The notes beneath the pieces were generated by a model. It was given only the letters and a program-made list of their open reading frames with translations, was not told where the DNA came from and did not search any database. 64,000 bases of DNA from an uncultured Planctomycetia bacterium (GTDB lineage: Bacteria > Omnitrophota > Gorgyraeia > 2-02-FULL-51-18 > JAGOUK01), in NCBI GenBank assembly GCA_964430735.1, contig CAYSFB010000001.1:124082-188081 (forward strand). Direction: 5' to 3'. Both the position numbers and the translations under genes were made by a program. This document shows, piece after piece, positions 4,626-50,698 of the stretch. The stretch's first letter is position 1; the number at the start of each line of letters is the position of its first letter.

Positions 4626-4645
4626 GATTTAAAGGCGGTATTTTA

Positions 4646-8334: not shown

Positions 8335-8342
8335 GGGGGTCC

Positions 8343-11444: not shown

Positions 11445-11445
11445 C

Positions 11446-13208: not shown

Positions 13209-13214
13209 CGGCTC

Positions 13215-14507: not shown

Positions 14508-16738
14508 GAGGCGGACTCCGCCGGAATTTGACCGGCCATGTTCCGCACCTCGCGGTAATGCTGCATGCGTCGGAAGGAATTCTCGGGGAATGCGCTCGGC
14601 GTGAACGTCACGTAGAAGCCGTTCTCGTCGTGGCTGCGGTTATAGATCAAGCGCACCGTCCAGCAATAGAAGTTGTCGCGTTCGACCACAAATTCAAACT
14701 CGTTGTTCCGCCCGCCGTCCGACGCCGAGTCACGCGCGAAGTCGAACCGCTCGTACACGCCGAACTTCCACTCCGGATTCATCCGCCACTCGGCATGCGC
14801 GGTGGTCTGATTGCTCGTGTCGTACAGGAAGCGCTGGCCGATGCCGAGCTTGAGAGGACCGCGCTCGTGCGTCAGGTCGATGTTGGCTTCTTCGAAGCGG
14901 TCGAACTCGGCGCTGTAGCGGGTGTCGACCGTCGTGCTCAGCCAGGTCCAGGGCGAAAAGGTCGTTTCGGTGAGAATCTGGTGCAGCTTGTTCGTATCCA
15001 TCTGGGGCATCACGAACTCGAAGCTGACGATGGACCGCACGAATTCGCGCATCAGCATGTCCGATTCCGGGTTCGAAGGATCCCTCCGGTGCTTGATCTG
15101 CAGCTTGTTCTCGAAGTCGACCGTCATCATGCTCTCGTGGTCCAGCGTATCCAGCCGGTCAAATTGAAACAACTTGTCTTTTTCGTACGTCGGGCGGGAC
15201 TGGTAGAAGTAACTGACGGTCGGCGTGAGGATGTGCCGCATCTGGTCGATGTCGATGCCCCACTGATGGAACGACGCGTCGTAGACCTTGAAGAGCTTGG
15301 TGCTCGCGTCCACGCCGGCTTCCGCGTTGTTCCGGAGGAAGGTGCGCTCATCGCCGTCCATGTTCCGGGTGTAGTACGTGTTGCGCATGCCGACGAAGGG
15401 CGTGATCGCCACGTCGCCCGCCTTGAGCGCATAGCTCAGACGGTTGCGCACGTCGCCGCGGCCGGCATCCTCGTTCTGCTCTTCGGAGTCCAGATCCTTG
15501 AAGGTGCGGTTGAGCCACGTAAACTGGTCTTCGTTCCGGAAATAAAAGTTCGAGTCCCCGATCGCGCGTGTGTGCGTGTCGAAGTGGAATTCCGGCAGCC
15601 GTTCGACGACGGGGATGAAGTCGTCGACCCGGTAGCGGCTCAAAAGGCTCGCGGAGTAGTCGTCGGTCGCGCGCACGATCGACACGTAGTTGTCCGGAAA
15701 CGCGATGCGCTCGAACTCTTCGCGATAAAAATAATCCTGGATCATGTACTCGTCGCTCAGCTTGTTGAGCTCGAAGGTCAGCGAGGTGGCTTCGTCGATG
15801 CGGGCCCGGTGACGGTCCTGGATCCGGTAACGGCTGGCGGTCGGGACCGCGTGATCCTTGGCGCGCGAGCAGTCGTCGCCCGACTCGAAGCAGTCGTCGT
15901 CCGCAAAATAGGTGCGCAGCGCGCCGCGGCCGAAGGTCTCCGAACGGTAGAAGTGTTCGACGCCCCACGCGAATCCCTGGTTTTCGCGCACGTCGAGCAG
16001 CACGTTGCCGTCGTGGTCCTTGTTGGCGTAATACCGGACCTTGGTCAGCGCGAACGCGCCCCATTCGCTCGTCGTGCCGAGTTCGACCTGGATCGGGAAG
16101 CGGTCGAAGTTCTTGATCGGGAGGACGAGCACCGGGATGTAAAACAGCGGGACGTTGCGCAGGCGCAGAATCACGTGCTTCATGACGAGACGGTCGTTCG
16201 GATAGTACTCGATCTCGCGGGATTCCAGGCGGTACTGGGGCGATCCGTCGACGCAATCCGTCGATTCGTCGCAGGTCGTGATGTAGGCGTCGCGGAGCAG
16301 GTAGGCCTCCTTGTCGCCGGCGGTGCGTTCGAGGCTGGCCGCGCGGCCGCGGTAACTCGGCGCGAGAACCGCCTTCAAATCCTTGATCTCGGCCGTCTTT
16401 TGACCGAAGTCGACGTGGATGTCTTCACCGGAATACTTCGCGCCCGGCTGCGTGAGGATCACATTCCCCTTGGCCCAGGCTTCCTTGGTCTTCATGTCGA
16501 CCTCAACTGAATCCGCCGTGAGGACCCAGCCCTCGTAGTCGATCTTGATGTTGCCTTCGCCGCGGGCGCGGTTCTTTTCATAAAAATACTCGACCGCGTC
16601 GCCCTGGATCTTCAGGGGCTTCTCAACCTTGGCCGTTTCGGGCGCAGGGGCGTCGGCGGCCCGGGCGGCGCCGTTTCCGGATACGAGCAGCAGGAGCGCG
16701 AGACAGGCGGCGCTCAATCGTTTCAAAACGGTCTTCAT
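14504..16738 (-). CDS. lptD: LPS-assembly outer-membrane protein LptD (OstA family)
   Basis: 744 aa, start taken at MKTVLKRL followed by a signal peptide. N-terminal OstA-like domain and a long C-terminal beta-barrel. The upstream 247 codons in the ORF track are a GC-rich read-through without a credible start. Confidence 0.8.
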   Translation of the reverse strand: MKTVLKRLSAACLALLLLVSGNGAARAADAPAPETAKVEKPLKIQGDAVEYFYEKNRARGEGNIKIDYEGWVLTADSVEVDMKTKEAWAKGNVILTQPGAKYSGEDIHVDFGQKTAEIKDLKAVLAPSYRGRAASLERTAGDKEAYLLRDAYITTCDESTDCVDGSPQYRLESREIEYYPNDRLVMKHVILRLRNVPLFYIPVLVLPIKNFDRFPIQVELGTTSEWGAFALTKVRYYANKDHDGNVLLDVRENQGFAWGVEHFYRSETFGRGALRTYFADDDCFESGDDCSRAKDHAVPTASRYRIQDRHRARIDEATSLTFELNKLSDEYMIQDYFYREEFERIAFPDNYVSIVRATDDYSASLLSRYRVDDFIPVVERLPEFHFDTHTRAIGDSNFYFRNEDQFTWLNRTFKDLDSEEQNEDAGRGDVRNRLSYALKAGDVAITPFVGMRNTYYTRNMDGDERTFLRNNAEAGVDASTKLFKVYDASFHQWGIDIDQMRHILTPTVSYFYQSRPTYEKDKLFQFDRLDTLDHESMMTVDFENKLQIKHRRDPSNPESDMLMREFVRSIVSFEFVMPQMDTNKLHQILTETTFSPWTWLSTTVDTRYSAEFDRFEEANIDLTHERGPLKLGIGQRFLYDTSNQTTAHAEWRMNPEWKFGVYERFDFARDSASDGGRNNEFEFVVERDNFYCWTVRLIYNRSHDENGFYVTFTPSAFPENSFRRMQHYREVRNMAGQIPAESAS

Positions 16739-17673
16739 TCTTTTTCCTCCGAACGGGCGAAGGCCAAAGCCGCCGCCCCGATGATGCCTGCGTCCGCGCC
16801 GAAAGCGGCCGGAACAATCTTGAGATGCTGCGTCGCCAGCGGAAACGCGTGGCGCTTCACCGAACGGCGCAGCGGGTCGAACAAAAATTTGCCGGCGCCG
16901 GCCACGCCGCCGCCGATCACGATCATTTCGGGGTTGAGAAGATTGCAGATCCCGCCCAAGAAATCCCCGAACTCTTCGGCGACGTCGGCCCAGAACCGCT
17001 TCGCCTTCGCGTCGCCCGCGCGCGCCGCCCGCGTCACGTCTTCCAGCCGGACGGCCCGGCCCATCACCCGCGCGGCCTTGGCGCACAACGCCCGATTTCC
17101 GACGCGCGTTTCGATGCAGCCCCGGCTGCCGCAGCCGCACTTGAGTCCCGTCCGCACGTCGCCGTAGCGGATGTGCGAGATTTCGCCCGCCGAAAACGTC
17201 GATCCGTAAAAAAGCTTTCCATCCCGGACGATCCCGCAGCCGATGCCGGTGCCGAGCGTAAGAAAAAGCGCGTAGCTGCTCCCGCGGGCCGCGCCGAACC
17301 GGAACTCGGCCATCGTCATCGCGTTGCCGTCGTTGTCGATCACGGCCTTGAGACCGGAGCGCCGGCTCAGCAGTTCGGCCAGCGGAATATTGTTCCATGC
17401 GGGCAGGTTGGGCAGCACCAGCACGCGCTTGCGGGCCTGATCGACCGGGCCGGGCATGCCGGCGCCGATCCCGGCGCAATCCGCGCGGCGGACACCGTTC
17501 TGCTTCAGCAGCGCGGCGGATTCTTCGGCGACCCAGCGGACAAATGCGTCAGGCGAACCGACCTCACGGGCTTCGCGCCGGACCGTCGCCAAAATCCGCG
17601 CGTTCCGGTCCACGAGCGCCAAGCGCGCGTTCGTGCCTCCGAGGTCCAATCCGATCGCCCATTTGGGCTTCAT
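16735..17673 (-). CDS. ROK family sugar kinase (glucokinase/N-acetylglucosamine kinase-like)
   Basis: 312 aa, start at MKPKWAIGLDLGGTNARL. ROK Zn motif CGCGSRGC. Its stop overlaps the lptD start as ATGA. Confidence 0.78.
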   Translation of the reverse strand: MKPKWAIGLDLGGTNARLALVDRNARILATVRREAREVGSPDAFVRWVAEESAALLKQNGVRRADCAGIGAGMPGPVDQARKRVLVLPNLPAWNNIPLAELLSRRSGLKAVIDNDGNAMTMAEFRFGAARGSSYALFLTLGTGIGCGIVRDGKLFYGSTFSAGEISHIRYGDVRTGLKCGCGSRGCIETRVGNRALCAKAARVMGRAVRLEDVTRAARAGDAKAKRFWADVAEEFGDFLGGICNLLNPEMIVIGGGVAGAGKFLFDPLRRSVKRHAFPLATQHLKIVPAAFGADAGIIGAAALAFARSEEKE

Positions 17674-17770: not shown

Positions 17771-19129
17771 TCAGCGGTTGATGTAGGCGCAGACGCGGTT
17801 TTTGCCCTGCCGTTTGGCCTGATAAAGGGCGGAGTCGGCCCACTCGACGATCTCGCCCGGTTCCCGGATCGCCGAGCTGAATGTCGCCACGCCGGTCGAG
17901 GCGGTCATTTTAAGCGAGAGGTCGTAGGCCTTGTAATCGTGCTGCTCGATGGCGCGCCGGATGCGTTCGGCGACATACATCGCCCCGTTCTCGTCCGTGT
18001 CGAGCAGAATGGCCGCGAACTCTTCGCCGCCGTAGCGGCCGACCAGGTCCACTTCGCGCAGCGTCTTTTTGATGAGCTCCGCGGTCTGGCGCAGGATGGC
18101 GTCCCCGACCAGGTGGCCGTGACGGTCATTGCAGGATTTGAAGTTGTCCAGGTCGATCATCAGGAAGCTGAACTTGAGGTTGAAGCGGGCCGAGCGGCTG
18201 ATCTCTTCTTCGAGACGCTTGAAGAAATGCCGGCGCACGTAGGCGCCCGTGAGCCAGTCGGTGATCGCCAGACGCTGGACGTCCGCGTAGAGCTTGATGC
18301 GCTTGAACTCGGCGATGAAGCGGTCGGCCAGAATCGCGATGGCCGTTTCGTGGCGGCGCTCGAGCCCTTCCAGCGTCAGGATCGCCGACAGACCGTCCGT
18401 CGTGCGCACCGGAATCGCGGTGAAGCTTCCGGTCCCGGCCGGCAGCTTGAGATCGCCCCGGTCCGCCCCTTCTCCCCACACCACCAGCGGCCGGGGGTCA
18501 CGGTCCATGATTTCCAGAAGCCGAAGGTCGAACGGATACACTTCGCCGCGGAACATGACGTCCGGCGACAGGAGGCCCTTGTCCTGGCTCGAAAACTGCA
18601 GGTATCGCTGGTCGATCTGGTACACCCGTTCGATCGTGAGCCCCTGCTTCGCCTGATTCGCCAGCATCACGAGCCTCGACTTGCGGACGCCAAAGCTGCT
18701 CATCAGCACTTCCGAAACGTCGACGAACACGTCCAAAAACTCGAGCGCCCGCGACATTTCCTTCACCTTGTCGTACATGTGGGAGACTTGCTGAATTTCG
18801 TCCTGCAACGCCTTCACCCGGGCATCTCGGTCGGCGACTTCCCTGTTGTAATCACGCGACTTGGCTTCGATCACAGAAATTTCTTCACGCATGTTTTGAC
18901 GATTGACCGCAACCCAGCGCAGCGCCTTCTGAGCCATCCGGTAGGTCAGGAGAATCCCCAGTGCATACAGAATCCAGACGAACGGGTCCATCTCGGCGAA
19001 CAGACACGAGGACACGATCGCCAGCACGCCGATCGCGACCAGCATGACGCGGACCAGGCGCGACGACACCAGGTCCGGCTGGAAAAACAGGAAGAACAGG
19101 AGGCCCTGGATGGCGAGGTAGGACCACAT
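17771..19129 (-). CDS. Membrane-anchored GAF-GGDEF diguanylate cyclase (active GGEEF, intact RxxD I-site)
   Basis: 452 aa, start at MWSYLAIQ. Four predicted N-terminal TM helices and a GAF-like middle region. The C-terminus reads REVDLVGRYGGEEF (GGDEF domain). Confidence 0.82.
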   Translation of the reverse strand: MWSYLAIQGLLFFLFFQPDLVSSRLVRVMLVAIGVLAIVSSCLFAEMDPFVWILYALGILLTYRMAQKALRWVAVNRQNMREEISVIEAKSRDYNREVADRDARVKALQDEIQQVSHMYDKVKEMSRALEFLDVFVDVSEVLMSSFGVRKSRLVMLANQAKQGLTIERVYQIDQRYLQFSSQDKGLLSPDVMFRGEVYPFDLRLLEIMDRDPRPLVVWGEGADRGDLKLPAGTGSFTAIPVRTTDGLSAILTLEGLERRHETAIAILADRFIAEFKRIKLYADVQRLAITDWLTGAYVRRHFFKRLEEEISRSARFNLKFSFLMIDLDNFKSCNDRHGHLVGDAILRQTAELIKKTLREVDLVGRYGGEEFAAILLDTDENGAMYVAERIRRAIEQHDYKAYDLSLKMTASTGVATFSSAIREPGEIVEWADSALYQAKRQGKNRVCAYINR

Positions 19130-19131
19130 GG

Positions 19132-20559
19132 TTATTCGGCCACCACCCGGTTTCGGCCCGCGCGTTTCGCCTGATACAGGCGCTGGTCGGCCTTGTGGAT
19201 CAGTTCGTCGCGGGTGATTCCGTCGGACGGGTATTCCGCGATGCCAAAGGACATCGTGATCGTGCGGGTCTCGCGACGCAGCTTGAACGGCTTGGCTTCG
19301 ATCGCCGCGCGGATCGACTCCGCCACCCGCACGGCTTCCGCGGCCGTCTTCTGGGGAAGAATGAGGATGAACTCTTCGCCTCCGTAACGGCCGACGATGT
19401 CCGTCGGGCCGGTGCTGGATTTGAGAGTTTCGGCGACGCTGCGCAGCACAAAGTCGCCGGCGGTGTGGCCGAACTCGTCGTTGTATTTCTTGAAAAAATC
19501 GATGTCCGCCATCACGACCGAGAACGGGGCTGCGAGCCGGGCGCAGCGCTGGATCTCTTCGGTGACACGCTCCTGCACATACCGGAGCAGATAGCATTCG
19601 GTCAGACTGTCGATGATCGAAAGTTCGCGCGTCTTTTGATACAGGAGGATGTTGCGGATCACGACGGCGCTCAAGTCCGCGACGATGTCCATCAGCCGCA
19701 GGTCGTCCGTGTGGAACATGCCGGGCTCTTCCGCAGTCAGGCGCAGCACGCCGCATACCGTGGACTTCGAAACGAGCGGAACCGCGCAGAGCGACCGCTC
19801 GCGGGACGACTGCGCCCCTTCTTTAAGAAAACGAAAATCCGTATGCGTGTCTTCGATCAGAAGCGGCTGCGAACGCTTGATCACCCATTCGTCGTATTCG
19901 TTGCCGCGCTTGGCCTTTTCCTCCCCGCCCTTCTTCGAGACCTGGGCGATGAGACCGAGCCCCTCTCCCGCTTCCTCCGAGACATACAGCAGCACCCGGT
20001 CCGCTTCCGGCACCAGCTCCGCGACTTCCTGCACGATGATTTTGCCCGTCGCGTCCAGACTGTCCGCTTCCTTGAGATGGTCCGAGAATTCGCGCATGTA
20101 CTGCAGCCGTTCGAGCTTGCGGCTCAGCGCCGCCAGCAGCCGCGAGCGCTCCTCCAGCGATTTCTGCGCCAGATTGAGGCTTTCCTGGATCTTGTCGCGC
20201 TCCATCATTTTCGAGAGCTTTTCGCGGCCGATCTTGTCGGTGATGTGCTTGAGCCACAGGTACAGCAGCGCGACCGTGACGATGTGTACGCCCATACCCG
20301 GCTCGCCGAGGTCCAGCATCAGGTACGCGGCCAGGAGCGACACGACCGCCGCGAACACAATGAACAGGATGCGTCCGCACAGGAACCAGGTCAGGATCAG
20401 GATGATGTTGGACAGGTAGAGGTTGACGAGGATGATTTGACGCGCGAAATCAAAATCTTTTTCAAGGATGGGAAGATACGAGAAGAACAGGACGCTCCAG
20501 ATCAGAATGGCCGCGATCGGGAGGAAAAAGGACGGAATGAGGGAAACCCTCGGGGGCAT
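19132..20559 (-). CDS. Membrane-anchored GAF-GGDEF diguanylate cyclase (active GGEEF, degenerate I-site)
   Basis: 475 aa. TM N-terminus, a coiled coil and a GAF region, then TGPTDIVGRYGGEEF. The first residue of the I-site RxxD motif, Arg, is missing. Tandem paralog of the upstream gene. Confidence 0.82.
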   Translation of the reverse strand: MPPRVSLIPSFFLPIAAILIWSVLFFSYLPILEKDFDFARQIILVNLYLSNIILILTWFLCGRILFIVFAAVVSLLAAYLMLDLGEPGMGVHIVTVALLYLWLKHITDKIGREKLSKMMERDKIQESLNLAQKSLEERSRLLAALSRKLERLQYMREFSDHLKEADSLDATGKIIVQEVAELVPEADRVLLYVSEEAGEGLGLIAQVSKKGGEEKAKRGNEYDEWVIKRSQPLLIEDTHTDFRFLKEGAQSSRERSLCAVPLVSKSTVCGVLRLTAEEPGMFHTDDLRLMDIVADLSAVVIRNILLYQKTRELSIIDSLTECYLLRYVQERVTEEIQRCARLAAPFSVVMADIDFFKKYNDEFGHTAGDFVLRSVAETLKSSTGPTDIVGRYGGEEFILILPQKTAAEAVRVAESIRAAIEAKPFKLRRETRTITMSFGIAEYPSDGITRDELIHKADQRLYQAKRAGRNRVVAE

Positions 20560-21671: not shown

Positions 21672-22610
21672 CTATTTGCCTTTCTTCCGCGGGGCGGCCT
21701 TGGCGGCGGCTGACGGCGTTTTTTTGAGCATCGCCGCAAAATAGGCGAGACGGGATTTGAGGTCGCGGCGGTGGATCACCTGATCCAGCCAGCCGTGCTC
21801 GAGCAAAAACTCGGACGTCTGGAACCCGTCGGGAAGCTTCTGGCGGATGGTCTGCTCGATCACGCGCGGGCCGGTGAACCCGATGAGCGCGCGCGGCTCG
21901 GCGACGACCAGGTCCCCCAGCGACGCGTAGCTGGCCATGATGCCGGCCATCGTCGGGTTCGTCAGAACGGAGATAAAGAGTTGGTCGGCGGAATGGTGAC
22001 GGGCCAACGCGGCGGACGTCTTGGCCATCTGCATGAGCGACAGAGCGCCTTCATACATACGGGCGCCGCCGCCGGAACCGGAAACGATGATGACCGGAAG
22101 GCGCTTCTGCGTCGCCGTTTCGATGGCGCGCGTGAGCTTTTCGCCGACGACGGAACCCATGGAACCCATGATAAAGCGGGAATCCGTGACGCCAAGCACC
22201 ACACGCTGCCCTTCCATCTGGGCCGTGCCGGTAATCACCGCGTCCCGGAGACCGGTGCGGGCGCGCTCTTCTTCCAGTTTGTCGACGTAAGCCTTGGGGC
22301 CTTGGAACTTGATCGGATCGATGGAATGGACGTCGAAGTCCATCTCTTCAAAGGTGTTGGGGTCTGCCAGGGATTCGATGCGCTCGTACGCGCCCAGTGT
22401 CATGTGATAATCACACTTGGGGCAGATGCGGAGGTTCTCTTCGAGCGCCTTGTTGTAGATGATCTCGGAGCAGGCGTCGCACTTGGTCCACAGGCCCTTC
22501 GGAATGTCCTTCTTCCGATCGCTTTTGGCGGTCGAAATCTTGACGTTTTCCGAAGCGTCAGAGGGTGATTTGGATTGGGCGTCAGCCATAGATGGAGAGA
22601 TAGTAATCAT
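21672..22610 (-). CDS. accD: Acetyl-CoA carboxylase carboxyltransferase subunit beta
   Basis: 312 aa. Zn-ribbon CDACSEIIY...CPKCDYH followed by a carboxyltransferase domain. Confidence 0.88.
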   Translation of the reverse strand: MITISPSMADAQSKSPSDASENVKISTAKSDRKKDIPKGLWTKCDACSEIIYNKALEENLRICPKCDYHMTLGAYERIESLADPNTFEEMDFDVHSIDPIKFQGPKAYVDKLEEERARTGLRDAVITGTAQMEGQRVVLGVTDSRFIMGSMGSVVGEKLTRAIETATQKRLPVIIVSGSGGGARMYEGALSLMQMAKTSAALARHHSADQLFISVLTNPTMAGIMASYASLGDLVVAEPRALIGFTGPRVIEQTIRQKLPDGFQTSEFLLEHGWLDQVIHRRDLKSRLAYFAAMLKKTPSAAAKAAPRKKGK

Positions 22611-22725: not shown

Positions 22726-24447
22726 TTACGGTAAGTGAGAGATCCGCTCCATGGGAAGCGCCTGAGGCCTGGCAATGAAGTACCCTTGAGCCCAATCCAC
22801 GCCGGCCTGTTTCAGGTACGTCCACTCGGGTTCCGTCTCAATCCCCTCGGCCACGGTCATGGCGTTCATGCTCCGCGCAAACACCGAAAGCGACAAGAGA
22901 ATCTTACGCTTGGCGTCAGACGCGTGGATGTCCCGGATGATCGACTTGTCAAATTTGATGTAGTGGGGCTTGAGTTCCGCCGCTTCCCGCAGACTGACGG
23001 ATCCCCCGCCGGCATCATCGAGCGCAATCTGGGCGCCTTTGGCAACCAGTCCCTCCATCACGAGGCGCACCTGGGCGGATTGCTTGAGCAGGGATTGTTC
23101 GGTGATTTCGATGACGACGCGCCGGGGGTCGAAGAACCCCTCGTCCCAGATCCGCTCCATGCACTGGGCGTCCAGCAGCGTTTCGCGGTTCAGGTTGATG
23201 AACAACTTGCTTCTCGGCGGAAGGTTGTTGGCGCGGCGCAGCACATTGATCGCGCAGGCCACGTCCAGCTCGCGGATAAGGTCCGTTTCGCGCGCGGCCT
23301 GGAACATGCGGACCGGATCGATCGGCTTGCCGTCGGAGCCGGTAAAACGGGACAAGGCCTCGTGGGCACACACCTTCCCCGTCCAATCCACAATCGGCTG
23401 GTAATGGGCTTCCACTTCCCCTGAGTGAATCACGGCCGCGATCCGCATGAGGAGCTCCGAGGCCGGATGGAGCTTTTTCGAGGGATCGGACAAATGGGCC
23501 TGCTGAGGCGACGGTTTGCGGCTGGCCACCTCGAAGCTGAGCGGCGACAAAAGTTCGCGGACGTTGGTGCGCCGGTCCTTCAGGTAGGCACTGTGAGGGT
23601 AACGCTTGAGAAAGCGGTGCATCTGTTCACAGGTCCGGACCACTTCGGCGATGTGCCGGAACGGAAGTTTTTCGTTCGTCACGATGGCGATGGACAGCGT
23701 CACGACGCCTTCGGTCTTTCCCTCGTCGGCGCTTCCGGAAACGCCGCCCAGGCGCGCCTCGAACTGTTCGATCACCCGCTCGGCGAAGTCAACCGCCTTT
23801 TCGGGCGGAAGCGTGACAACGAAGTCACGGTCGCCGAAATGCCCCACGAAGTTGCGGCCCGAGGCGGGCCGGCCGCACACGTCCATCAGGAGATCCATGG
23901 TCCGCCGCACCAGCGCGTCGCCGCGCCGCGGGCCGAAGGTCCGGTAATAAAAATTAAGGTGACGCAAATGGATTGCGCAGATCGCGAACGGATCCTCCTT
24001 TTGGATGATCGCTTCGATGCGCTCGACGCTTGAGCGGCTCCCAGGGAGCCGGGTGAGCGGATGGATATCCAGCGCGTGGGCGCTGGTTTCCACGATTTCG
24101 CGCAGCTGGTACCAGATGTCCGCGGTCGGCTCGTCTCGGGACAGGACGCGGTCGGCGGAACTGTCGGGGAACTCCACGCCGTCGGCCGTATCGGTCATCA
24201 CGATGAGCGGGATGTGTTCGAGGACGGCGTCGGACTTGAGCTGCCGGCAAACCTCGAACCCGCCGACATTCGCCCGCCGCAAATCCACCAGCACCAGATG
24301 CGGCATCTCGTCGTAGACCGACACCACGAGGCTCGAGATGTCGGGGAGCGGAACGAAGCTGAAGCTGGAACTTCCGGCCAGCGCCTCGAACTCCCGGATC
24401 AGCTCCGGATTCTTGGTGTGGATGAGGACTTTGTATTCTTTATTCAT
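22726..24447 (-). CDS. Response regulator with degenerate GGDEF and active EAL domain (c-di-GMP phosphodiesterase)
   Basis: 573 aa. REC domain with a phospho-acceptor Asp (VLVDLRRA). The GGDEF-like segment reads GHFGDRDF and is degenerate. The EAL domain has CAHEALSRF. Confidence 0.8.
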   Translation of the reverse strand: MNKEYKVLIHTKNPELIREFEALAGSSSFSFVPLPDISSLVVSVYDEMPHLVLVDLRRANVGGFEVCRQLKSDAVLEHIPLIVMTDTADGVEFPDSSADRVLSRDEPTADIWYQLREIVETSAHALDIHPLTRLPGSRSSVERIEAIIQKEDPFAICAIHLRHLNFYYRTFGPRRGDALVRRTMDLLMDVCGRPASGRNFVGHFGDRDFVVTLPPEKAVDFAERVIEQFEARLGGVSGSADEGKTEGVVTLSIAIVTNEKLPFRHIAEVVRTCEQMHRFLKRYPHSAYLKDRRTNVRELLSPLSFEVASRKPSPQQAHLSDPSKKLHPASELLMRIAAVIHSGEVEAHYQPIVDWTGKVCAHEALSRFTGSDGKPIDPVRMFQAARETDLIRELDVACAINVLRRANNLPPRSKLFINLNRETLLDAQCMERIWDEGFFDPRRVVIEITEQSLLKQSAQVRLVMEGLVAKGAQIALDDAGGGSVSLREAAELKPHYIKFDKSIIRDIHASDAKRKILLSLSVFARSMNAMTVAEGIETEPEWTYLKQAGVDWAQGYFIARPQALPMERISHLP

Positions 24448-24502: not shown

Positions 24503-26473
24503 TCAATCCCGGACCTTCAAAACAAAAAGCGTCATGTCGTCGTGCTGGGGTGCGCCGTTGACGAAGAGCTCGACTTGTTCGAGAATCCGGGCTGCAATCC
24601 CGGAAGCAGGTTCTTTGCGCGAACGCTTCGCAGCGTCGGTCAACCGGTCGATTTCGAAGTCCTGAGCCTTCCGGTTGCGGGCTTCCGAAATACCGTCCGA
24701 ATACATCAGATACACGTCTCCCGCCTCCAGCGGCACTTCGATTCTGCCGAAGTCGACGTCACCGACCAGTCCGATCGGCATGCCGCCGTCCGGCGACAGC
24801 TGCTCAACGTCCCCGTTCGCCCGGATGCGGGCAACCGGCATATGTCCGCCGTTGGATATCGTCAGAACTCTTTTGCGGAGGTCCGCAACCAGATAATTCA
24901 TCGTGACGAACAAACCGCTCGATTCGCCTTCGGACAGGCCGTTGTTCAGACGGCGCAGCGTTTCCGCGGGATCGAGGCCGGAGGCGGCATGGAATTTGAA
25001 TTCGGCGACGGACCTCGCCATGAACAGGGCGGCCGGCATCCCCTTGCCTGAAACATCTCCGCACATCAGGCCCAGATGGTCCCCGTCCAGCCGCAACACA
25101 GCGTAGAGATCGCCCCCGACGTGCTTGGCCGGCCGCATGAAGACCTCCATCTCGTACCCCTCAACAACCGGAAGACTCGACGGCAGGAAGCTCCGCTGGA
25201 TTTTGCTGGCGATCGAAAGCTCCGTCTCCAGCTGTTCGCGCTTGCGCTTTTCCTGCATCGTCCGCCAGACAATTGCCGACAGGTACACCGCCCAAAACAG
25301 CAGTGTCGGAAAAAAGAAGTCCAGCCAGGCTTTGCCCCAGACAAAGAGAGCCGCGTTCAACGCCGCAAAAAGCCCCCAGCATCCGACCGATGCGGCCGCG
25401 CTCAGAATTAGGTGCTTGCTCCGCGAAATGAACCACCCGGCCGCGACGAGCAGCGCGGCCACAAAAAGATTTACCCACCGCGGCGCACGGCGCATGAAGT
25501 CCGCGTCCAGGACGTTTTGGAAAAAGTCGGCGTGCACACCCACCTGCGGATACAGCGGATCCAGCGGCGTCGCGTTGATATCGTGTGTGGCGGTCGCCGT
25601 GAGGCCGATCAGACACACGCGGTCCTTGAGGCGGCTCAAATCCATGTCCGGCTTTTCGCCGAGCAATTCCTGTCGGTACGCGGCCAGCACTTCCAGATAG
25701 GAGACGTGTTCGAAGGCCTTGCTCCAGGTGCCGTGAAAACGGACCAGAGTCTCGCCGTTCTCGTCGATCGGAATCCGTGCTTTGTCGCCTAGGAGAATCT
25801 CGCCGCGGCGAAATTGGACATCCTCAGGCTTTATCCCGAGACGGTCCATCGCCAGCCGCATTCCCAGATGAAAACGCGGCTGCCCATTTTCCCAAATGAC
25901 CGGAGCAAGGCGGCGGCGCTTCCCGTCCGGATCAACAGCGATGTTCACATGCGCCGTTCCCGCCGACGCCTCCTTCAGCTTCGGCAGGAGCGGTGCGAGC
26001 ACACCCGGAGATTCGGCGCGGCCTGCCACGCCGGCCGGCGCTTGCAGCGCTTCGCAAAAAAAGGCGCGGCCATACCGCGCGGCAGACGCTGCCAGCTCAG
26101 CATCCGAATCGGAAGCCTCAACAAATAAAATGTCCATCCCTGCTGAATACGCGCCATGGGTATTTAAGGCGTCCATAAGAGCTGCGTGGTATTGCCGGTC
26201 GAACGGCCAGCGGCCGATCCCTTCAAGGGCATCGTCCCATATGTCGACCATGAGAACGGGAGAAGCGTGGGAGGAGGCGGGTGCAAGTCGGCAGCGCCAG
26301 TCGTAAGACTGGAGTTCAAAAATCTCAAAGGACCGGGTCCAAGAAAGTGCCGCGGCGATGAGAACCGCCGCGGCGATCAGGACGGGAGCGGAAACGGCGG
26401 AAAGGCGGCGTCCGGCCGATTTGAGCCAGCCCGGCCACGCCCATGAGATCTTCAAAGACTTAAGCACAGGCAA
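24503..26473 (-). CDS. CHASE2 sensor domain-PP2C/SpoIIE family serine phosphatase (RsbU-like partner-switching phosphatase)
   Basis: 656 aa. N-terminal TM helix, a periplasmic CHASE2 signature (RWPFDRQYHAALMDALNTHGAYSAGMDILF), then three TM helices, then a PP2C domain (GGDLYAV...CGDVSGKGMPAALFMA...SDGISE). Confidence 0.78.
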   Translation of the reverse strand: MPVLKSLKISWAWPGWLKSAGRRLSAVSAPVLIAAAVLIAAALSWTRSFEIFELQSYDWRCRLAPASSHASPVLMVDIWDDALEGIGRWPFDRQYHAALMDALNTHGAYSAGMDILFVEASDSDAELAASAARYGRAFFCEALQAPAGVAGRAESPGVLAPLLPKLKEASAGTAHVNIAVDPDGKRRRLAPVIWENGQPRFHLGMRLAMDRLGIKPEDVQFRRGEILLGDKARIPIDENGETLVRFHGTWSKAFEHVSYLEVLAAYRQELLGEKPDMDLSRLKDRVCLIGLTATATHDINATPLDPLYPQVGVHADFFQNVLDADFMRRAPRWVNLFVAALLVAAGWFISRSKHLILSAAASVGCWGLFAALNAALFVWGKAWLDFFFPTLLFWAVYLSAIVWRTMQEKRKREQLETELSIASKIQRSFLPSSLPVVEGYEMEVFMRPAKHVGGDLYAVLRLDGDHLGLMCGDVSGKGMPAALFMARSVAEFKFHAASGLDPAETLRRLNNGLSEGESSGLFVTMNYLVADLRKRVLTISNGGHMPVARIRANGDVEQLSPDGGMPIGLVGDVDFGRIEVPLEAGDVYLMYSDGISEARNRKAQDFEIDRLTDAAKRSRKEPASGIAARILEQVELFVNGAPQHDDMTLFVLKVRD

Positions 26474-26493
26474 CCGCGCGGCTCAAATGCCGT

Positions 26494-27372
26494 TTAGGAC
26501 TTGGAGAAGAACAGGAAGCCGCCTTTTTTGGCCTCGTCTTTGGCGGGCGCGGCGGAAGCCGATGCGGTACCGGAAGCGGCCGCGGCCTCGCGCGCCAGAA
26601 GTTCGGCCCTGGTCATTTCTTCGAGCGCGGCCAGGCGGGCCCGCTCGACCGCGCGCTTGGCACGGTCTTTCGCAAGCTCTTCAGGCGTGAGCTCCTTGCC
26701 CTTCATCAGGACTTTCCAGGGATGATGGCGCACGTCCTCGCTGAATTCCTTGAAGTATTCGGAGGTGACTTCGAGATTGGACATGATGTTGTCGAGCTTG
26801 GGCCGGTTCTTGGACAGGATACCGTCAAGGTTCGTGAGCACCCCCATCACTTTCGGCTTGGCTTCCACCAGCAGCTCATCGGCATGCACGGCGAGGGTTT
26901 TGAATTCCTTCATCGTCGCCGTCGCTTCGTCCATGGCAACCGAGGCTTTTTCCATCAGCTCGTCGAAGTTCACCGGATCGCGCGCAACAATGCTGCCGCC
27001 CGGCTCCACGAATTCGGGGCTCACGCCCGGACGGATCTCGACGTACTTCTCGCCCATCAGGCCCAGCGAAGCCATCATCGCCTCGGCGTCCTTGCGCAGC
27101 TTCACCTGCGACTCGACCCAGATCGTCGCTTCTACGACGGTCGCGTCCGCTTCGTACAACAGCTTCACGTCGCGCACTTCGCCGACTTCGACGCCGGCCA
27201 GGCGGACCGGGGCGAACTTCTTGATGCCCGCGGCCGACTGGAAGCGGGTGGAAACGGTGTAGCCCTTGGGCTTCACGCCGACGTCGCCCGTCTTCAAAAA
27301 GATTCCGATCAGGATCAAGACCGACACGAGCACCGCGATGCCGGTTTTGAGTTCGTTGGATAACTTGGCCAT
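26494..27372 (-). CDS. mlaD: MCE-family periplasmic lipid-binding protein MlaD
   Basis: 292 aa. N-terminal TM anchor, an MCE domain, and a C-terminal Ala/Glu-rich coiled-coil tail. Confidence 0.82.
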   Translation of the reverse strand: MAKLSNELKTGIAVLVSVLILIGIFLKTGDVGVKPKGYTVSTRFQSAAGIKKFAPVRLAGVEVGEVRDVKLLYEADATVVEATIWVESQVKLRKDAEAMMASLGLMGEKYVEIRPGVSPEFVEPGGSIVARDPVNFDELMEKASVAMDEATATMKEFKTLAVHADELLVEAKPKVMGVLTNLDGILSKNRPKLDNIMSNLEVTSEYFKEFSEDVRHHPWKVLMKGKELTPEELAKDRAKRAVERARLAALEEMTRAELLAREAAAASGTASASAAPAKDEAKKGGFLFFSKS

Positions 27373-27392
27373 GTTTCGCTATTGCTCCTTGG

Positions 27393-28215
27393 TTAGTCCT
27401 GAGTCAAACTCTCGAGATAATTCTGTCCCTGCTGGACGAACTGCACCGGGCCTTCCGCTTCGCCTTCGACGAACTGGCGCAGGATGGGGTTGGCGGCCTT
27501 CACGATCTCGTCCGGAGTTCCGAGTTCCAGCACCTCGCCCCGGTGCAGCATGGCGATCCGGTCGGCGATGCGGAACACGCTCTTCATGTCGTGCGTGACG
27601 ACGATCGAGGTGATGTGAAGTTTTTTGGAAAGATCCATGATCAGCTTGTCGACGACCGCGGTCATGACCGGATCGAGGCCGGCGGTCGGCTCGTCGTAAA
27701 AAACGACTTCCGGATCCATCACGATCGCGCGCGCGAGGCCCACGCGCTTGCGCATTCCGCCCGAGAGCATCGACGGCATCAGATGCTCGAAGCCGGTGAG
27801 CCCGACGAGCTCCAGCTTCATCTTGACCACGATGTTGATGACCGCTTCGTCCAGGTCCGTATGCTCCTTGAGCGGCATCGCCACGTTCTCGCCGACGGTC
27901 AGCGAGTCGAACAGCGCCGCCGACTGGAACAACATGCCGAACTTGAGGCGGATCTTGTCCAGACCTTCTTCGTTGAGCGTGTTCAAGTCCTGACCCATGA
28001 ACACGACGCGGCCCTGGTCGGGCTTGGTCTGGCCGATGATGTGGCGGAGCAGCGTTGATTTGCCGCATCCGGACCCGCCCATGATCACCATCGTTTCGCC
28101 GCGGCGGATGTCCAGGTTGATCCCGCGGAGCACCTGACGGCCCCCGAAGGTCTTGTGAAGGTTCTCGACGCGGATCAGCGGTTCGCCCGGTTGGATCGTC
28201 TGAGATTGACTCAAG
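27393..28215 (-). CDS. mlaF: ABC transporter ATP-binding protein MlaF
   Basis: About 274 aa. Walker A GGSGCGKST and signature LSGGMRKRV. There is no in-frame ATG, so the start is inferred as TTG (MSQSQTIQPGEPLIRV) 8 nt downstream of an AAGGGGA RBS. The ORF track extends about 600 nt upstream into mlaE. Confidence 0.75.
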
Positions 28216-28228
28216 CTCTCGGTCCCCT

Positions 28229-29026
28229 TTAGTTTCCGGTGAAGTAGAACATGGCCGTCAGGATCGCATCGGCCAGAATGATCATCACGAATGAAAGAAC
28301 GACGGAGTCCGTGGTCGACTTGCCCACGCCTTCGGCGCCGCCTTGCGTGTTCAGGCCGCGGTGGCAGCTGATCATCGTGATGATGATGCTGAACACCCAG
28401 CCCTTGAGAAGTCCGGTCAGAATGTCTTTTTTGACAAGGAAGTCGAACGTGGTATCGAGGTAAAGACCCGGACGCAGGTCCAGGTAGGTCGTGCCGACGA
28501 GCATGCCGCCGAGCATGCCCGCGACGTCTCCGAGAATCACGAGGCACGGCAGCATGATCATGAGCGCCAGGAAACGCGGGACAACGAGGAAGCGGACCGG
28601 GTTGAGCGCGAGCGTCTCGAGCGCCTCGATCTGCTCGGTGACCTTCATCGTGGAGAGTTCGGCCGTGATGGCCGCGCCGACGCGGCCGGCGATGACAAGC
28701 GAGGTCAGAACGGGTCCGATTTCGCGCGCCATCGAGACGGCGACGAGCGCGGCGACATAAATCGTCGCCCCCATGCGCTCGAGCTGGTACGCGCTCTGCA
28801 TCGCCAGCACCATGCCCATCGAAAAGCACACGAAGCAGACGATCAGGACGGAATTGACGCCGCCGAATACGGCCTGGACCGCCGTGTATTCGATCGAAAC
28901 CGGCTTTTTCTTGAACGGACCGGCGAAGATCCAGTACAGCGTCTGGAAGAACAGCGAGACGATCTCGCGGATCTGCCGGACGACCGACAGGACGGAACCG
29001 CCGACGGCGGACAAAAACCCGGTCAC
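28229..29026 (-). CDS. mlaE: ABC transporter permease MlaE
   Basis: 265 aa, GTG start. Multi-TM MlaE/YrbE-family permease. Confidence 0.8.
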   Translation of the reverse strand: MTGFLSAVGGSVLSVVRQIREIVSLFFQTLYWIFAGPFKKKPVSIEYTAVQAVFGGVNSVLIVCFVCFSMGMVLAMQSAYQLERMGATIYVAALVAVSMAREIGPVLTSLVIAGRVGAAITAELSTMKVTEQIEALETLALNPVRFLVVPRFLALMIMLPCLVILGDVAGMLGGMLVGTTYLDLRPGLYLDTTFDFLVKKDILTGLLKGWVFSIIITMISCHRGLNTQGGAEGVGKSTTDSVVLSFVMIILADAILTAMFYFTGN

Positions 29027-29027
29027 G

Positions 29028-29354
29028 TTATTTGAACTTGGCGACTGCGGTCGCGTCGTCGGGATAGATGCCGAACAGTTTGTCGAGCTTGGTGATCTCG
29101 AACAGGCTGCGGACCTTGTCCGACAAATGCGTCAGATACAGGGCGCCGCCCTTGGCGCGGGCTTTTTTGAGCACTTCGACCAGGGTCGCAAGGCCCGAGC
29201 TGTCGACATAGCCGACCTTGGCCAGGTTGATCACGACCTTCGGGTTCGTGACCTTTTCCATTTCCTTCTTGAGCTGCGGGGACGTGGAGATGTTGATTTC
29301 TCCCTCCACCGTCGCGACTACGACTCCGTTCATCTCGGTGAGCTTGATGTCCAT
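29028..29354 (-). CDS. STAS-domain protein (anti-sigma-factor antagonist SpoIIAA/RsbV-like; also MlaB-like)
   Basis: 108 aa. The phosphorylatable-serine motif VDSSGLATL is present. Its stop is 1 nt from the mlaE start. Confidence 0.85.
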   Translation of the reverse strand: MDIKLTEMNGVVVATVEGEINISTSPQLKKEMEKVTNPKVVINLAKVGYVDSSGLATLVEVLKKARAKGGALYLTHLSDKVRSLFEITKLDKLFGIYPDDATAVAKFK

Positions 29355-29387
29355 CGGTCTTCCTCTCCTGTTCGGTGATGCCGGTCG

Positions 29388-29828
29388 TTAGGGTTTCTGA
29401 TTCTGAAGGCGTTTGGTGATTTCGACCAGGCTGCCGTTTTTCTTGTACTCCAGCCGGCTCATCAAATGCTTCACCAAATAAACGCCGCGGCCGCTGTAGG
29501 CCTCAATGTTGCTGCTGTCCGTGGGGTCCTTGAGACGTTCCACCACGAAGCCCTTTCCCTGATCCTGGACGGCGACCCGGATTTCGCCGGAATCGTACGA
29601 AGCGGTCACGTTGACCGGCACTTCCGCCCTGTACCCGTTCCCATGCTTCATCGCGTTGATCAGGATTTCCTCGAAGCTCAGACGCAGGTCGAAACGGTCC
29701 GACTCATTCAGGCTCAAGGGGCTCAAAAAATCAAAAAGGCGCTTGGTCGCTCCCGGAATTTCTTCCAGCGAACTCGATACGTCGAAGCGGAGGGTCCGGG
29801 CGGCGGGGATCTGAGCCGGATCGCTCAT
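29388..29828 (-). CDS. Anti-sigma regulatory factor serine kinase (RsbW/SpoIIAB-like, GHKL ATPase)
   Basis: 146 aa. HATPase_c N-box (EEILINAMKHGN) and a G-box (GRGVYLV). It lies immediately upstream of the STAS gene. Confidence 0.8.
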   Translation of the reverse strand: MSDPAQIPAARTLRFDVSSSLEEIPGATKRLFDFLSPLSLNESDRFDLRLSFEEILINAMKHGNGYRAEVPVNVTASYDSGEIRVAVQDQGKGFVVERLKDPTDSSNIEAYSGRGVYLVKHLMSRLEYKKNGSLVEITKRLQNQKP

Positions 29829-30781
29829 CGTTCCGCCACCTGGCCCATTCCGCGGTACTTCTCGTACCTGGCTTCGACCAGCCGTTGTTCGGACAGAGCC
29901 GTTAATTCGGGCAGCGCCTTCAAAATGGTTTTTTTGATTTCCTGCGCCGTGAAGGCCGCGTCGAAGTGCGCACCGCCGAGGGGCTCGCGCACGATGCCGT
30001 CGATGATGCCGAGCTGCAGCAGATCCTTGGCGGTAAGCTTGAGCGCCGCAGCCGCGTCGGGGGCCTTCTTGTGGTCTTTCCAGAGAATGGCGGCGCAGCC
30101 TTCGGGCGAGATCACCGAGTAATAGGCGTTGTCGAGGACGAACATCCGGTCCGTGACGCCGATGCCGAGCGCGCCGCCGGAACCGCCCTCGCCGATGACG
30201 AAGCCGAGGGTCGGGACACGCAGTTCGGCCATTTCGCGCAGGTTGAACGCGATCATGTTGGCCTGTCCGCGCTCTTCGGCGCCGACGCCGGGATAGGCGC
30301 CGGGCGTGTCGATCAGGCAGATCACCGGGATGCGGAACTTTTCGGCCAGCTTCATGAGGCGCATAGCCTTGCGGTACCCTTCCGGATGCGCGCTGCCGAA
30401 ATTGCGAAAAATATTCTCTTTGGCGTCGCGGCCCTTCTGATGACCCATGATGCAGACGCGTTTGCCGTCGAGATAGCCGAACCCGCCGATCAGCGCCTTG
30501 TCGTCGGCAAACGCGCGGTCGCCGAAGATCTCTTCAAAATCGGTGATGAGCATCCGGATGTAGTCGGCCGTGTAGGGCCGGCGGGGATGACGCGCGATCT
30601 GGACGCGCTGCCACGGGGTCAGGCGCGAGTACGTGTGTTCCTTGACCTCGACGAGCTTGATCTCGAGCTTTTTGATCTCGTTCTGAAGGTCGACGGGGCC
30701 GTTCTGGGAAAGGCTTTTGAGTTCGGTGATCTTGTTTTCGAGCTCGAGAATCGGTTTTTCAAAATCCAGGACATGCGCCAT
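29825..30781 (-). CDS. accA: Acetyl-CoA carboxylase carboxyltransferase subunit alpha
   Basis: 318 aa. N-terminus MAHVLDFEKPILELENKI... and a carboxyltransferase fold. Confidence 0.88.
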   Translation of the reverse strand: MAHVLDFEKPILELENKITELKSLSQNGPVDLQNEIKKLEIKLVEVKEHTYSRLTPWQRVQIARHPRRPYTADYIRMLITDFEEIFGDRAFADDKALIGGFGYLDGKRVCIMGHQKGRDAKENIFRNFGSAHPEGYRKAMRLMKLAEKFRIPVICLIDTPGAYPGVGAEERGQANMIAFNLREMAELRVPTLGFVIGEGGSGGALGIGVTDRMFVLDNAYYSVISPEGCAAILWKDHKKAPDAAAALKLTAKDLLQLGIIDGIVREPLGGAHFDAAFTAQEIKKTILKALPELTALSEQRLVEARYEKYRGMGQVAER

Positions 30782-32239: not shown

Positions 32240-33235
32240 TCATGATTGCGCAAGCAGCGCTTGCTCCTCGAGCCAGGCCCGGATCTCGGACTCCCACTGC
32301 TTCGCAATCTCCGCCGGCCTGTCACCCGGCTCCCTGCGGATCCAGCGCACCCGCGCATCGCGCCGCCACCACCCGATCTGCCGCTTGGCGTACCGCCTCG
32401 TGTTCATCTGCAGCTCGGCGATCGCCTGTTCTTTGGCGACGCCTTCAAAAAGCCAGCCTTGGATCTCACGCAGCCCCAGGCAGGCGGCGGCCGTCTTGGA
32501 GCGCTTGCGTCCCGCAAGCCGCTTCACCTCAGCAGCCGCGCCGGACCGGAACATCGTTTTAACCCGTTCGTCGATACGGCGGTAGAGTTCCGGCCGGTCC
32601 CATTCGAGCCCCCAGATCCGCACCGGCCATTCGGCGGCGATCCCTTTGCGCCGCCGCTTCAAATCAGAAAACTTCTGCCCGGTCGCCTCAATCACCTCCA
32701 GCGCCCGCACGATCCGGCGGGCGTCGTTCGGATGCAGAACCGCCGCGGCCTCCGGATCAGCCGCCGTCAATTCCCGATGCAGCACCGGCGCGCCTTCGCG
32801 CTCGGCCCGCAGCGTCAACCGCTCCCGGATCTCCGGCGACTCGCCCGGCCCTTCAAAAAGCCCGTCGATGAGCATGTGGGCATAAAGTCCGGTTCCGCCC
32901 GCGACGACCGGGATGCGGCCGCGGCGGACGATTTGCGGGATGAGCTTGCGCGCCCGCGCCGTGAAGTGGGCAGCGCCGTATTCGCGGGACGCCGGAAAAA
33001 CGCCGACCTCGTGATGCGGGACCGCCTTGAGCAGCGCGGCGGTCGGCGCCTGGGACAGGATTTTGAGCTCCCGGTAAACCTGCATGGAATCGCAGCTGAT
33101 GACTTCGATCGGAAGGCGGCGGGCGATCTGACGGATGAGTTCCGTTTTGCCGCTGGCAGTGGGACCGACGAGAAAGACGGCTGCGGGACGCAGTAGTTTA
33201 AAGCGTTTGGAGGGCCGCGCGGATCTCTTCGACAA
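32240..33235 (-). CDS. miaA: tRNA dimethylallyltransferase
   Basis: 331 aa. P-loop GPTASGKT and the overall MiaA pattern. The start is uncertain because the ORF overlaps the upstream DegT gene by 38 nt. Confidence 0.8.
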   Translation of the reverse strand: MSKRSARPSKRFKLLRPAAVFLVGPTASGKTELIRQIARRLPIEVISCDSMQVYRELKILSQAPTAALLKAVPHHEVGVFPASREYGAAHFTARARKLIPQIVRRGRIPVVAGGTGLYAHMLIDGLFEGPGESPEIRERLTLRAEREGAPVLHRELTAADPEAAAVLHPNDARRIVRALEVIEATGQKFSDLKRRRKGIAAEWPVRIWGLEWDRPELYRRIDERVKTMFRSGAAAEVKRLAGRKRSKTAAACLGLREIQGWLFEGVAKEQAIAELQMNTRRYAKRQIGWWRRDARVRWIRREPGDRPAEIAKQWESEIRAWLEEQALLAQS

Positions 33236-50496: not shown

Positions 50497-50698
50497 GCTA
50501 GATACCTTTCTAAGTGCAGGTTCGACCGGTCCCAATAGCTGGATCGTACCACACCGACTTTCATTTGTCACTTATTTTTGATAACTTTTGTCATAAGATA
50601 AAAACTAATCTGCTACTCTTGAAAGTAGTTGGTAATGAATGTATATTTCGTTCAGGCGCCAATGGGGAACCACCAACACCCCGCGAAGGAGGCAAGCC
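50497..50698. promoter_or_regulatory. AT-rich divergent promoter region with direct repeats (TTTGTCA...TTTTGTCA, TGATAA/AGATAA) and a short palindrome
   Basis: This is the only strongly AT-rich 100-nt stretch in the window. It sits between the divergent PilZ and FecR-like genes. A perfect AAGGAGG RBS lies upstream of the ATG at 50699. Confidence 0.5.

Follow-up and report, generated by a model that had tools for sequence, protein, structure and literature searches.

A partner-switching gene set interleaved with the mlaEFD lipid-transport genes of Omnitrophota and its possible role in transporter control

To our knowledge, no mode of regulation has been established for Mla or for other MCE lipid transporters. 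Here, we describe a gene string in a 64-kb stretch of DNA of an uncultured bacterium of the phylum Omnitrophota (contig CAYSFB010000001.1, positions 124,082 to 188,081; this whole stretch of 64,000 nucleotides is called the window), in which the genes of an RsbW-type kinase and of a small STAS protein stand in front of the lipid-transport genes mlaE, mlaF and mlaD and the gene of a CHASE2-PP2C membrane phosphatase stands behind them. Considering all data, we put the probability that phosphorylation of the STAS protein at Ser52 gates the MlaFE complex at roughly 55%.

The closest described transporter is the MlaFEDB complex of E. coli and A. baumannii (PDB 6XGY, 6XBD, 7D06; PMC7367683). In E. 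coli, the STAS protein MlaB is needed for the association of MlaF with MlaE, its residue Thr52 lies centrally in the interface with MlaF, and the phosphomimetic exchange T52E weakens the binding (Kolich et al. 2020, PMC7367683). No kinase was found in that study and the phosphoregulation of MlaB was left as an open question. The Omnitrophota locus shares with this system a single-domain STAS gene in the mla operon, a Ser/Thr of the STAS protein at the N-terminus of helix alpha-2, the LSGGM signature of MlaF and a C-terminal MlaF extension ending in a Y-L-x-x-L helix. However, its STAS protein has the five-strand, four-helix architecture of RsbV/SpoIIAA and scores below the cut-off for MlaB, and the STAS gene is located 5' of mlaE, whereas the MlaB gene lies at the 3' end of the operon (mlaFEDCB). 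Moreover, unlike any described Mla system, the Omnitrophota locus comes with its own kinase and in most cases also with a phosphatase; it lacks MlaC and MlaA and its MlaD is of the long form.

The three signalling proteins resemble those of the B. subtilis switches RsbU-RsbV-RsbW-sigmaB and SpoIIE-SpoIIAA-SpoIIAB-sigmaF in protein family, in catalytic and phospho-acceptor motifs and in predicted fold. In contrast to these modules, neither the Omnitrophota operon nor the 64-kb window encodes a sigma factor, an ATP-binding cassette (ABC) transporter is placed between the STAS gene and the phosphatase gene, the phosphatase is predicted to sit in the membrane with a periplasmic CHASE2 domain, and the kinase is far less conserved than the STAS protein. 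In SypE-SypA of V. fischeri, HsbR-HsbA-HsbD and SiaABCD of P. aeruginosa and BtrUVW of Bordetella, a STAS or analogous small protein is likewise the output and its phosphorylation state selects the partner, but these switches act on biofilm polysaccharide, cyclic di-GMP (c-di-GMP) synthesis and type III secretion and never on an ABC transporter or on lipid transport. The chlamydial RsbU-RsbV1/V2-RsbW system (PMC11619594), which belongs to the same PVC superphylum, also combines a membrane sensor PP2C carrying a periplasmic ligand-binding domain with a small RsbW and RsbV and has no adjacent sigma gene. Its genes, however, are scattered and not linked to mla, and its sensor is not CHASE2. A preliminary description of the window had stated that the chlamydial system has no known sigma target; this statement is outdated, since RsbW is reported to form complexes with sigma-66 (PMC11619594).

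Thus, both partner switches with non-sigma outputs (SypA, HsbA, BtrV, SiaC) and the regulation of an ABC transporter by a STAS protein (MlaB-MlaF) are already known. In searches of a full-text collection with few subscription papers and in the key papers, we found neither a dedicated kinase or phosphatase for a Mla-associated STAS protein nor a partner switch within a mla operon, and within this coverage the suggestion of the preliminary description that the system is undescribed still stands.

The coordinates of the gene string are given in Table 1. The six co-directional and tightly spaced genes (kinase, STAS, mlaE, mlaF, mlaD, CHASE2-PP2C) that had been read from the letters alone were recovered at the same positions on the minus strand, and the spacing was as reported: the GTG start of mlaE lies 1 nt beyond the TAA stop of the STAS gene, and mlaF starts on TTG 14 nt beyond the mlaE stop. 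The start of the kinase gene overlaps the accA stop as ATGA, and because of this overlap accA is regarded as the first gene of the string. Independent gene calling of a public contig whose kinase is 100% identical gave equal products of 146, 108, 265 and 273 amino acids (aa) for kinase, STAS protein, MlaE and MlaF. The start codon of CHASE2-PP2C is fixed only to within about 30 codons. When some 66 long open reading frames (ORFs) of the window were scanned with Pfam and all six frames with a STAS profile, no Sigma70, MlaC or MlaA domain was detected among these ORFs and there was only one STAS gene; the earlier remark that no sigma, mlaB or mlaC gene is nearby agrees with this result. A promoter and terminator scan of the region from 21 to 33.5 kb yielded nothing beyond shuffled expectation and does not inform on the operon boundaries.

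Table 1. Genes of the string in the 64-kb window and the profile matches on which their assignment is based
Feature	Position	Strand	Basis and remarks
accA (acetyl-CoA carboxylase carboxyltransferase alpha)	29825-30781	minus	PF03255 477 bits; first gene of the string
RsbW/SpoIIAB-type serine protein kinase, GHKL fold, 146 aa	29388-29828	minus	HATPase_c_2 (PF13581) 77 bits
Single-domain STAS protein, 108 aa	29028-29354	minus	PF01740 72 bits; motif KVGYVDSSGLATLVE
mlaE permease, 265 aa, GTG start	28229-29026	minus	PF02405 259 bits; TIGR00056 254 vs cut-off 212
mlaF ATPase, 273 aa, TTG start	27393-28214	minus	Best NCBIfam match MlaF, 243 bits; LSGGM signature
mlaD MCE-domain subunit, 292 aa, long form	26494-27372	minus	PF02470 71 bits
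CHASE2-PP2C membrane phosphatase	24503-26473	minus	CHASE2 (PF05226) 158 bits; SpoIIE (PF07228) 157 bits
Degenerate REC-degenerate GGDEF (GDRDF)-intact EAL	22726-24447	minus	EAL 181, GGDEF 25, REC 18.5 bits (REC below cut-off)
accD (carboxyltransferase beta subunit)	21672-22610	minus	Carboxyl_trans and Zn_ribbon_ACC matches

The N-box (EE..INAMKHGN), the G1 box (D.GKGF) and the G2 box (SGRGVYL) of the kinase are kept across 78 orthologues, and its AlphaFold2 (AF2) model (pLDDT 89) gave Leptospira LvrC, SpoIIAB and RsbW as top Foldseek matches, with template modeling (TM) scores of about 0.65-0.8 for SpoIIAB and RsbW. The N-terminal 45 residues of this protein are poorly conserved, and a homologue search returned 27 matches only, none of them giving a view beyond the phylum. 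The STAS protein carries the motif Y49-VDSSGLATLVE with Ser52 of D51-S52-S53-G54 as predicted phospho-acceptor, and across 80 sequences the residues Y49-E60, Ser52 included, show a conservation of 95% or more. Against the anti-sigma-antagonist model TIGR00377 it scored 77.9, which is above the cut-off of 53.45, and its AF2 model (pLDDT 92), in which helix 2 begins at residue 52, is closest in fold to RsbV, SpoIIAA and TM1442 (Foldseek). A search of the STAS profile against 1.84 billion representatives gave 13 clusters at E <= 1e-30, followed by a gradual blend into generic anti-sigma antagonists; among the best 150 matches there was no STAS-MlaE fusion.

In the phosphatase, the metal-binding Asp motifs of the PP2C domain (GGDLY, GDVSGKG, DG..E, QHDD.T) are kept across 51 orthologues. 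Hydropathy analysis indicated transmembrane segments at residues 24-42, 354-372 and 384-402; a third helix in front of the last two (about 333-352) was read from the sequence and is below the threshold of the scan. If this helix is counted, CHASE2 is predicted to be periplasmic and the PP2C domain cytoplasmic. The protein shows the architecture of a CHASE2 sensor, i.e., a CHASE2 domain flanked by transmembrane helices and coupled to a cytoplasmic output domain (PF05226 and hydropathy). We know of no identification of the signal that CHASE2 recognizes. Some 20 Omnitrophota loci carry between mlaD and CHASE2-PP2C an insert of 0.8-3.9 kb that encodes one or two FecR-domain proteins and an unannotated or outer-membrane-protein-like protein (e.g., L003:9632-12521, L052:12705-15769, L087:12728-14517, L091:11738-13638); the window lacks such an insert. 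The inserted proteins may be periplasmic co-sensors of CHASE2. Judged by family profiles and predicted folds, kinase, STAS protein and phosphatase are a bona fide RsbW/RsbV/RsbU-type set, in which the STAS protein is of the RsbV/SpoIIAA type and no member of the MlaB family, and the module is complete and looks catalytically competent.

The MlaFED core of the transporter is complete, with MlaE, a MlaF-type nucleotide-binding domain and a MCE-domain MlaD encoded in one string. The NCBIfam score of MlaF is below the equivalog cut-off of 441, yet MlaF is the best match in this database. MlaD has a transmembrane helix at residues 4-32 (hydropathy), and its MCE domain is followed by a helical, low-complexity, Ala/Glu-rich C-terminal extension without a beta-barrel. 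MlaEFD with a long MlaD and without MlaC and MlaA has been described as the ancestral and widespread form (PMC10665443), and the long MlaD of the window, which has neither MlaC nor MlaA, fits this proposed trans-envelope type. We considered the absence of mlaC as a special trait of the locus and rejected this idea, since it is the norm outside Proteobacteria (PMC10665443).

The MlaF of the window has a C-terminal extension of 25 aa that ends in NYLESL. Its best PDB match is the MlaF of A. baumannii (2.6e-71), and the alignment runs through this extension (GPVQFVQQGQNYLES vs GPVEYQFSHQAYLDN). In E. coli MlaF, the C-terminal extension of about 25 residues ends in a short helix, the residues Tyr261, Leu265 and Leu266 of which reach into the groove that MlaB forms with the neighbouring MlaF (PMC7367683); the tail motif of the Omnitrophota protein matches the positions of these three residues. 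Of the STAS-linked Omnitrophota MlaFs, 66 could be anchored. Their tails are all 21-27 residues long, and the motif GPxxF(F/V)xxxxDYLxxL is strictly kept in 62 of them, with DYLKxL in the other four (GDYLKDL in L043). Beyond these 66 sequences, a variant MlaF tail without the motif occurs at the STAS-linked loci L087 and L099. In a second sample, which was anchored on MlaE and comprised 80 metagenome loci with 39-70% identity, the tail motif was present in 8/10 STAS-linked loci vs 0 of about 45 STAS-less loci, and STAS-less MlaF tails were mostly 9-14 residues long. The MlaEs of the STAS-less Omnitrophota loci L101, L103, L104 and L173 are 55-59% identical to that of the window and thus no more distant than those of many STAS-bearing relatives. 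For the MlaF of Veillonella, which has no MlaB, a shorter C-terminal extension has been reported. The co-occurrence of the tail motif with the STAS gene suggests a direct link between the STAS protein and MlaF.

Members of the STAS family are present in at least 555 species-representative genomes. All named matches are from Omnitrophota, and some labels of metagenome-assembled genomes (MAGs) are loose, such as 'uncultured Planctomycetia'. For synteny analysis we used the 80 best STAS loci and extra contexts at the species level and counted informative loci only. Here, the STAS gene was immediately preceded by the kinase gene in 80/80 loci and followed by mlaE in 75/76; mlaF was present in 72/74 and mlaD in 67/68. 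The preliminary description would have been undermined by a gene neighbourhood that is not conserved in relatives, and these counts speak for the contrary. The core order is kept even where the identity of STAS has fallen to 49% and that of the kinase to 31%, and it occurs in three unrelated flank settings: accA...CHASE2-PP2C(-GGDEF-EAL); glutaredoxin/rubrerythrin...FecR-x-CHASE2-PP2C in a genome of 1.82 Mb; and dcw cluster...PilZ/type IV pilus genes, where PP2C is absent from the vicinity. Since the core persists across these settings, accA, PP2C and GGDEF-EAL are variable flanks, and the invariant unit is kinase-STAS-mlaE-mlaF-mlaD. Among more than 80 relatives at the species level, nearly all have this arrangement, which chance can hardly account for. 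The gap between STAS and mlaE has a median of 13 nt, it is 30 nt or shorter in 60/74 loci and several loci have a 4-nt overlap; these short or overlapping gaps suggest translational coupling.

Such conservation might also be seen if the two modules had become adjacent in the Omnitrophota ancestor and had merely never been separated. With the exception of one contig of another lineage (L140, see below), all STAS-linked examples belong to one phylum, so that a single ancestral event is possible. However, the flanks on both sides have repeatedly been reshuffled and mobile genes have been inserted between mlaF and mlaD while the core order was kept, and the gaps are consistent with translational coupling. 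We therefore consider linkage without function very improbable.

In one Omnitrophota clade, kinase and STAS genes are lacking and a single-domain response regulator of 128-129 aa is encoded 27-62 nt upstream of mlaE (L101:4531-4917, L104:4556-4945, L173/L174:10001-10390). The REC pocket of this protein is canonical (acidic residues, Asp, Thr, Lys) and a DNA-binding output domain is absent; in its context, metH is followed by REC-mlaE-mlaF-mlaD-x-AsmA-like-DsbD. Because a different, non-homologous phospho-acceptor without DNA-binding output occupies the slot before mlaE, this slot appears to hold a protein-protein regulator of the transporter, and the presence of REC in the STAS slot suggests, like the tail motif, a direct link of STAS to MlaF. 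In an unrelated high-GC lineage, a STAS protein of 119 aa with Thr at the phospho-position (LDTAAM) is encoded directly 5' of mlaE-mlaF-mlaD (L140:70-429); the MlaF of this locus has a long C-terminal tail of differing sequence, and the contig begins 70 nt upstream of the STAS gene. Finally, two contigs of Thermodesulfobacteriota carry a CHASE2-adenylate/guanylate cyclase directly upstream of mlaEFD (L123:2095-4371, 758 aa; L164:4-2220, 738 aa). CHASE2 is thus linked to mlaEFD twice, the second time in another phylum, and the output domains differ.

According to the mechanism we propose, the unphosphorylated STAS protein would be the equivalent of MlaB as cytoplasmic subunit. With Ser52 at the centre of its helical docking face, it would bind to the helical subdomain of MlaF and would be clamped there by the DYLxxL tail of the neighbouring MlaF. 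This docking would stabilize or activate the MlaF2E2 complex. Phosphorylation of Ser52 by the RsbW-type kinase would release the STAS protein and turn the transporter down, and the CHASE2-PP2C phosphatase would dephosphorylate the STAS protein in response to a periplasmic envelope cue and thereby turn the transporter up again. We infer the binding of STAS to MlaF, the phosphorylation of Ser52 and the nature of the signal from sequence comparison. That the transporter is active when the STAS protein is unphosphorylated is proposed by analogy with the T52E mutant of E. coli MlaB, and the sign of the regulation could be opposite. A wider version, which we advance only tentatively, would combine these elements: reversible phosphorylation of Ser52 in the MlaF-docked STAS protein would gate MlaFE post-translationally, the phosphatase would read the periplasm or envelope via CHASE2 as a sensor of envelope or lipid status, and MCE transporters would have small single-domain phospho-acceptors as exchangeable on/off adaptors, namely the STAS protein in most Omnitrophota and the REC protein in one clade.

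Several observations weigh against Ser52-dependent gating of MlaFE. The preliminary description had called the STAS protein MlaB-like, and neither the profile searches nor the structure comparison bore this out. Against the MlaB model NF033618 it reached 38.3 bits at a cut-off of 90 and thus falls outside this family. A profile search of the PDB gave TM1442 (6e-20), RsbV and SpoIIAA at 1e-14 to 1e-20 vs 3.5e-6 for E. coli MlaB, and the Foldseek TM scores were 0.81-0.90 for RsbV/SpoIIAA vs about 0.65 for MlaB (TMq 0.58-0.69), the chains of which ranked 31st or lower. The STAS fold of MlaB is minimal and has neither a fifth strand nor a final helix (PMC7367683), whereas the model of the Omnitrophota protein keeps both elements (beta-5, residues 95-97; alpha-4, residues 100-106). 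In addition, MlaEFD functions without MlaB in Veillonella and most phyla (PMC10665443), the correlation between MlaF tail and STAS gene draws on few independent lineages (Omnitrophota and, from the literature, Proteobacteria), and the displacement of STAS by REC is seen at two distinct loci only. The preliminary description had also assigned a dedicated kinase and a CHASE2 phosphatase to the STAS protein. The kinase gene is adjacent throughout, but the phosphatase gene is not: PP2C was found within 9 kb downstream in 38/44 loci and was missing in 6/44. In a groundwater MAG (L044:4395-8056), accA-kinase-STAS runs straight into CHASE2-PP2C (STAS stop at 6154, PP2C start at 6158) with a clean junction and without mlaEFD in between. 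Finally, analysis of mirror-tree/rate covariation in 43 loci gave partial correlations of the STAS protein with AccA (0.35), MlaF (0.34) and the kinase (-0.07). This signal probably reflects shared slow evolution and was not used as evidence.

Some of these data would be expected from a classical partner switch, in which the kinase sequesters a housekeeping or alternative sigma factor encoded elsewhere, the STAS protein relieves this block, and mlaEFD is simply co-transcribed or belongs to an envelope-stress regulon. Both proteins are of the canonical RsbV/SpoIIAA and RsbW/SpoIIAB types by hidden Markov model and predicted fold, L044 retains kinase-STAS-PP2C without mlaEFD, and in the PVC relative Chlamydia RsbW is reported to bind sigma-66 even though the rsb genes are scattered and no sigma gene is adjacent (PMC11619594), which is a further point against the gating of MlaFE. 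However, neither the window nor the flanks annotated in relatives revealed a sigma gene. The mean pairwise identities in 44 loci were 0.67 for AccA, 0.41 for the kinase, 0.58 for STAS, 0.64 for MlaE, 0.71 for MlaF, 0.45 for MlaD and 0.48 for the PP2C domain. It can be seen that the conservation of the STAS protein resembles that of MlaE and MlaF and not that of the kinase or of PP2C, a pattern which is expected if STAS serves as a hub for several partners and no second partner of the kinase is conserved. As the least conserved protein, with its poorly conserved N-terminal 45 residues, the kinase would be an odd holder of a conserved sigma factor. A sigma target also leaves unexplained why mlaEFD is placed between STAS and phosphatase in 75/76 genomes and three flank settings, why the MlaF tail co-occurs with STAS and why REC can take its place. 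For these reasons we consider a sigma target rather unlikely.

The target of the switch might also be another neighbour, either the GGDEF-EAL enzyme or AccA/AccD, by which lipid synthesis would be coupled to envelope signals. Within the clade of the window, PP2C is followed by the GGDEF-EAL gene, and c-di-GMP genes are numerous in the window. An action on GGDEF-EAL would resemble that of HsbA on HsbD or of SiaC on SiaD in Pseudomonas, and outputs of STAS proteins onto diguanylate cyclases are documented (cited in PMC11619594). In most loci, accA stop and kinase start overlap; accA precedes the kinase gene in 65/70 informative loci, and the median gap is -23 nt. There is also the partial rate correlation between STAS and AccA. 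On the other hand, GGDEF-EAL is located downstream in about 19 of the closer loci only and is absent in distant clades. The accA gene is missing upstream in 5/70 loci (L049, L082, L087-L089), in which kinase-STAS-mlaEFD is intact, an interaction of a STAS protein with acetyl-CoA carboxylase has no known precedent, and the correlation with AccA may reflect shared slow evolution. Since both are variable flanks, GGDEF-EAL and AccA were rejected as primary target, and we regard such a neighbour target as improbable.

With its STAS gene, which is tied to mlaEFD phylum-wide together with a kinase and usually an envelope-sensing phosphatase, the locus makes the question of MlaB Thr52 testable with defined proteins. 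If Ser52 phosphorylation does gate MlaFE, this would be the first partner switch with an ABC transporter as output, CHASE2 would gain a physiological context in envelope lipid homeostasis, and outer-membrane maintenance in ultra-small, possibly host-dependent bacteria would have an added regulatory layer. In the wider version, the Omnitrophota STAS protein would have the look of a phosphoregulated ancestor of MlaB, and the question raised in 2020 on MlaB Thr52 would be answered. If a sigma factor is the target, the locus would still represent a phylum-wide sigma-less Rsb module of unusual operon structure.

A few loci deviate from the common arrangement. In L025, mlaF is apparently missing between mlaE and mlaD, and this gap as well as that of L044 could be a real deletion or relocation or an assembly error. 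L089 (11154-11549) and L090 (9364-9759) carry a small gene of the 23S_rRNA_IVP family between mlaF and mlaD and toxin-antitoxin-like genes after mlaD, with the core order kept. On the contig of the single-amplified genome AM-311-K22, the STAS-mlaEFD-PP2C block is present twice (L066 and L069) as a perfect inverted duplication, which is most likely a chimera of multiple displacement amplification, and one copy was left out of the counts.

As for the surroundings of the string in the window, accA and accD bracket the whole module in the window's clade; accD closes the string in this clade only, and among the related loci it was seen in L005 alone. By the overlap of accA stop and kinase start, genes of fatty-acid synthesis and of lipid transport are joined in one shared string. 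The REC-GGDEF-EAL protein is a probable c-di-GMP phosphodiesterase by its domain pattern and, although a clade-specific flank, might be a secondary target of the switch. Genes related to c-di-GMP are abundant in the window (22726-24447, 17771-20559, 50131-50571), including GAF-GGDEF, a second GGDEF, PilZ and GGDEF-EAL. Envelope functions are encoded at 91-17479, 42335-44761 and 53125-55125, namely a nucleotide-sugar/polysaccharide cluster with three UDP-glucose-dehydrogenase-like genes and many epimerases, a LptD-like protein, a LptF/G-family protein of 666 aa with an N-terminal extension of about 300 aa and an autotransporter of 808 aa; a L,D-transpeptidase is also encoded in the surroundings. 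The miaA gene (32240-33235) precedes the module by about 3 kb. For the ancestral rsbV2 of Chlamydia, a position directly 5' of miaA is reported (PMC11619594), and this parallel is maybe a coincidence.

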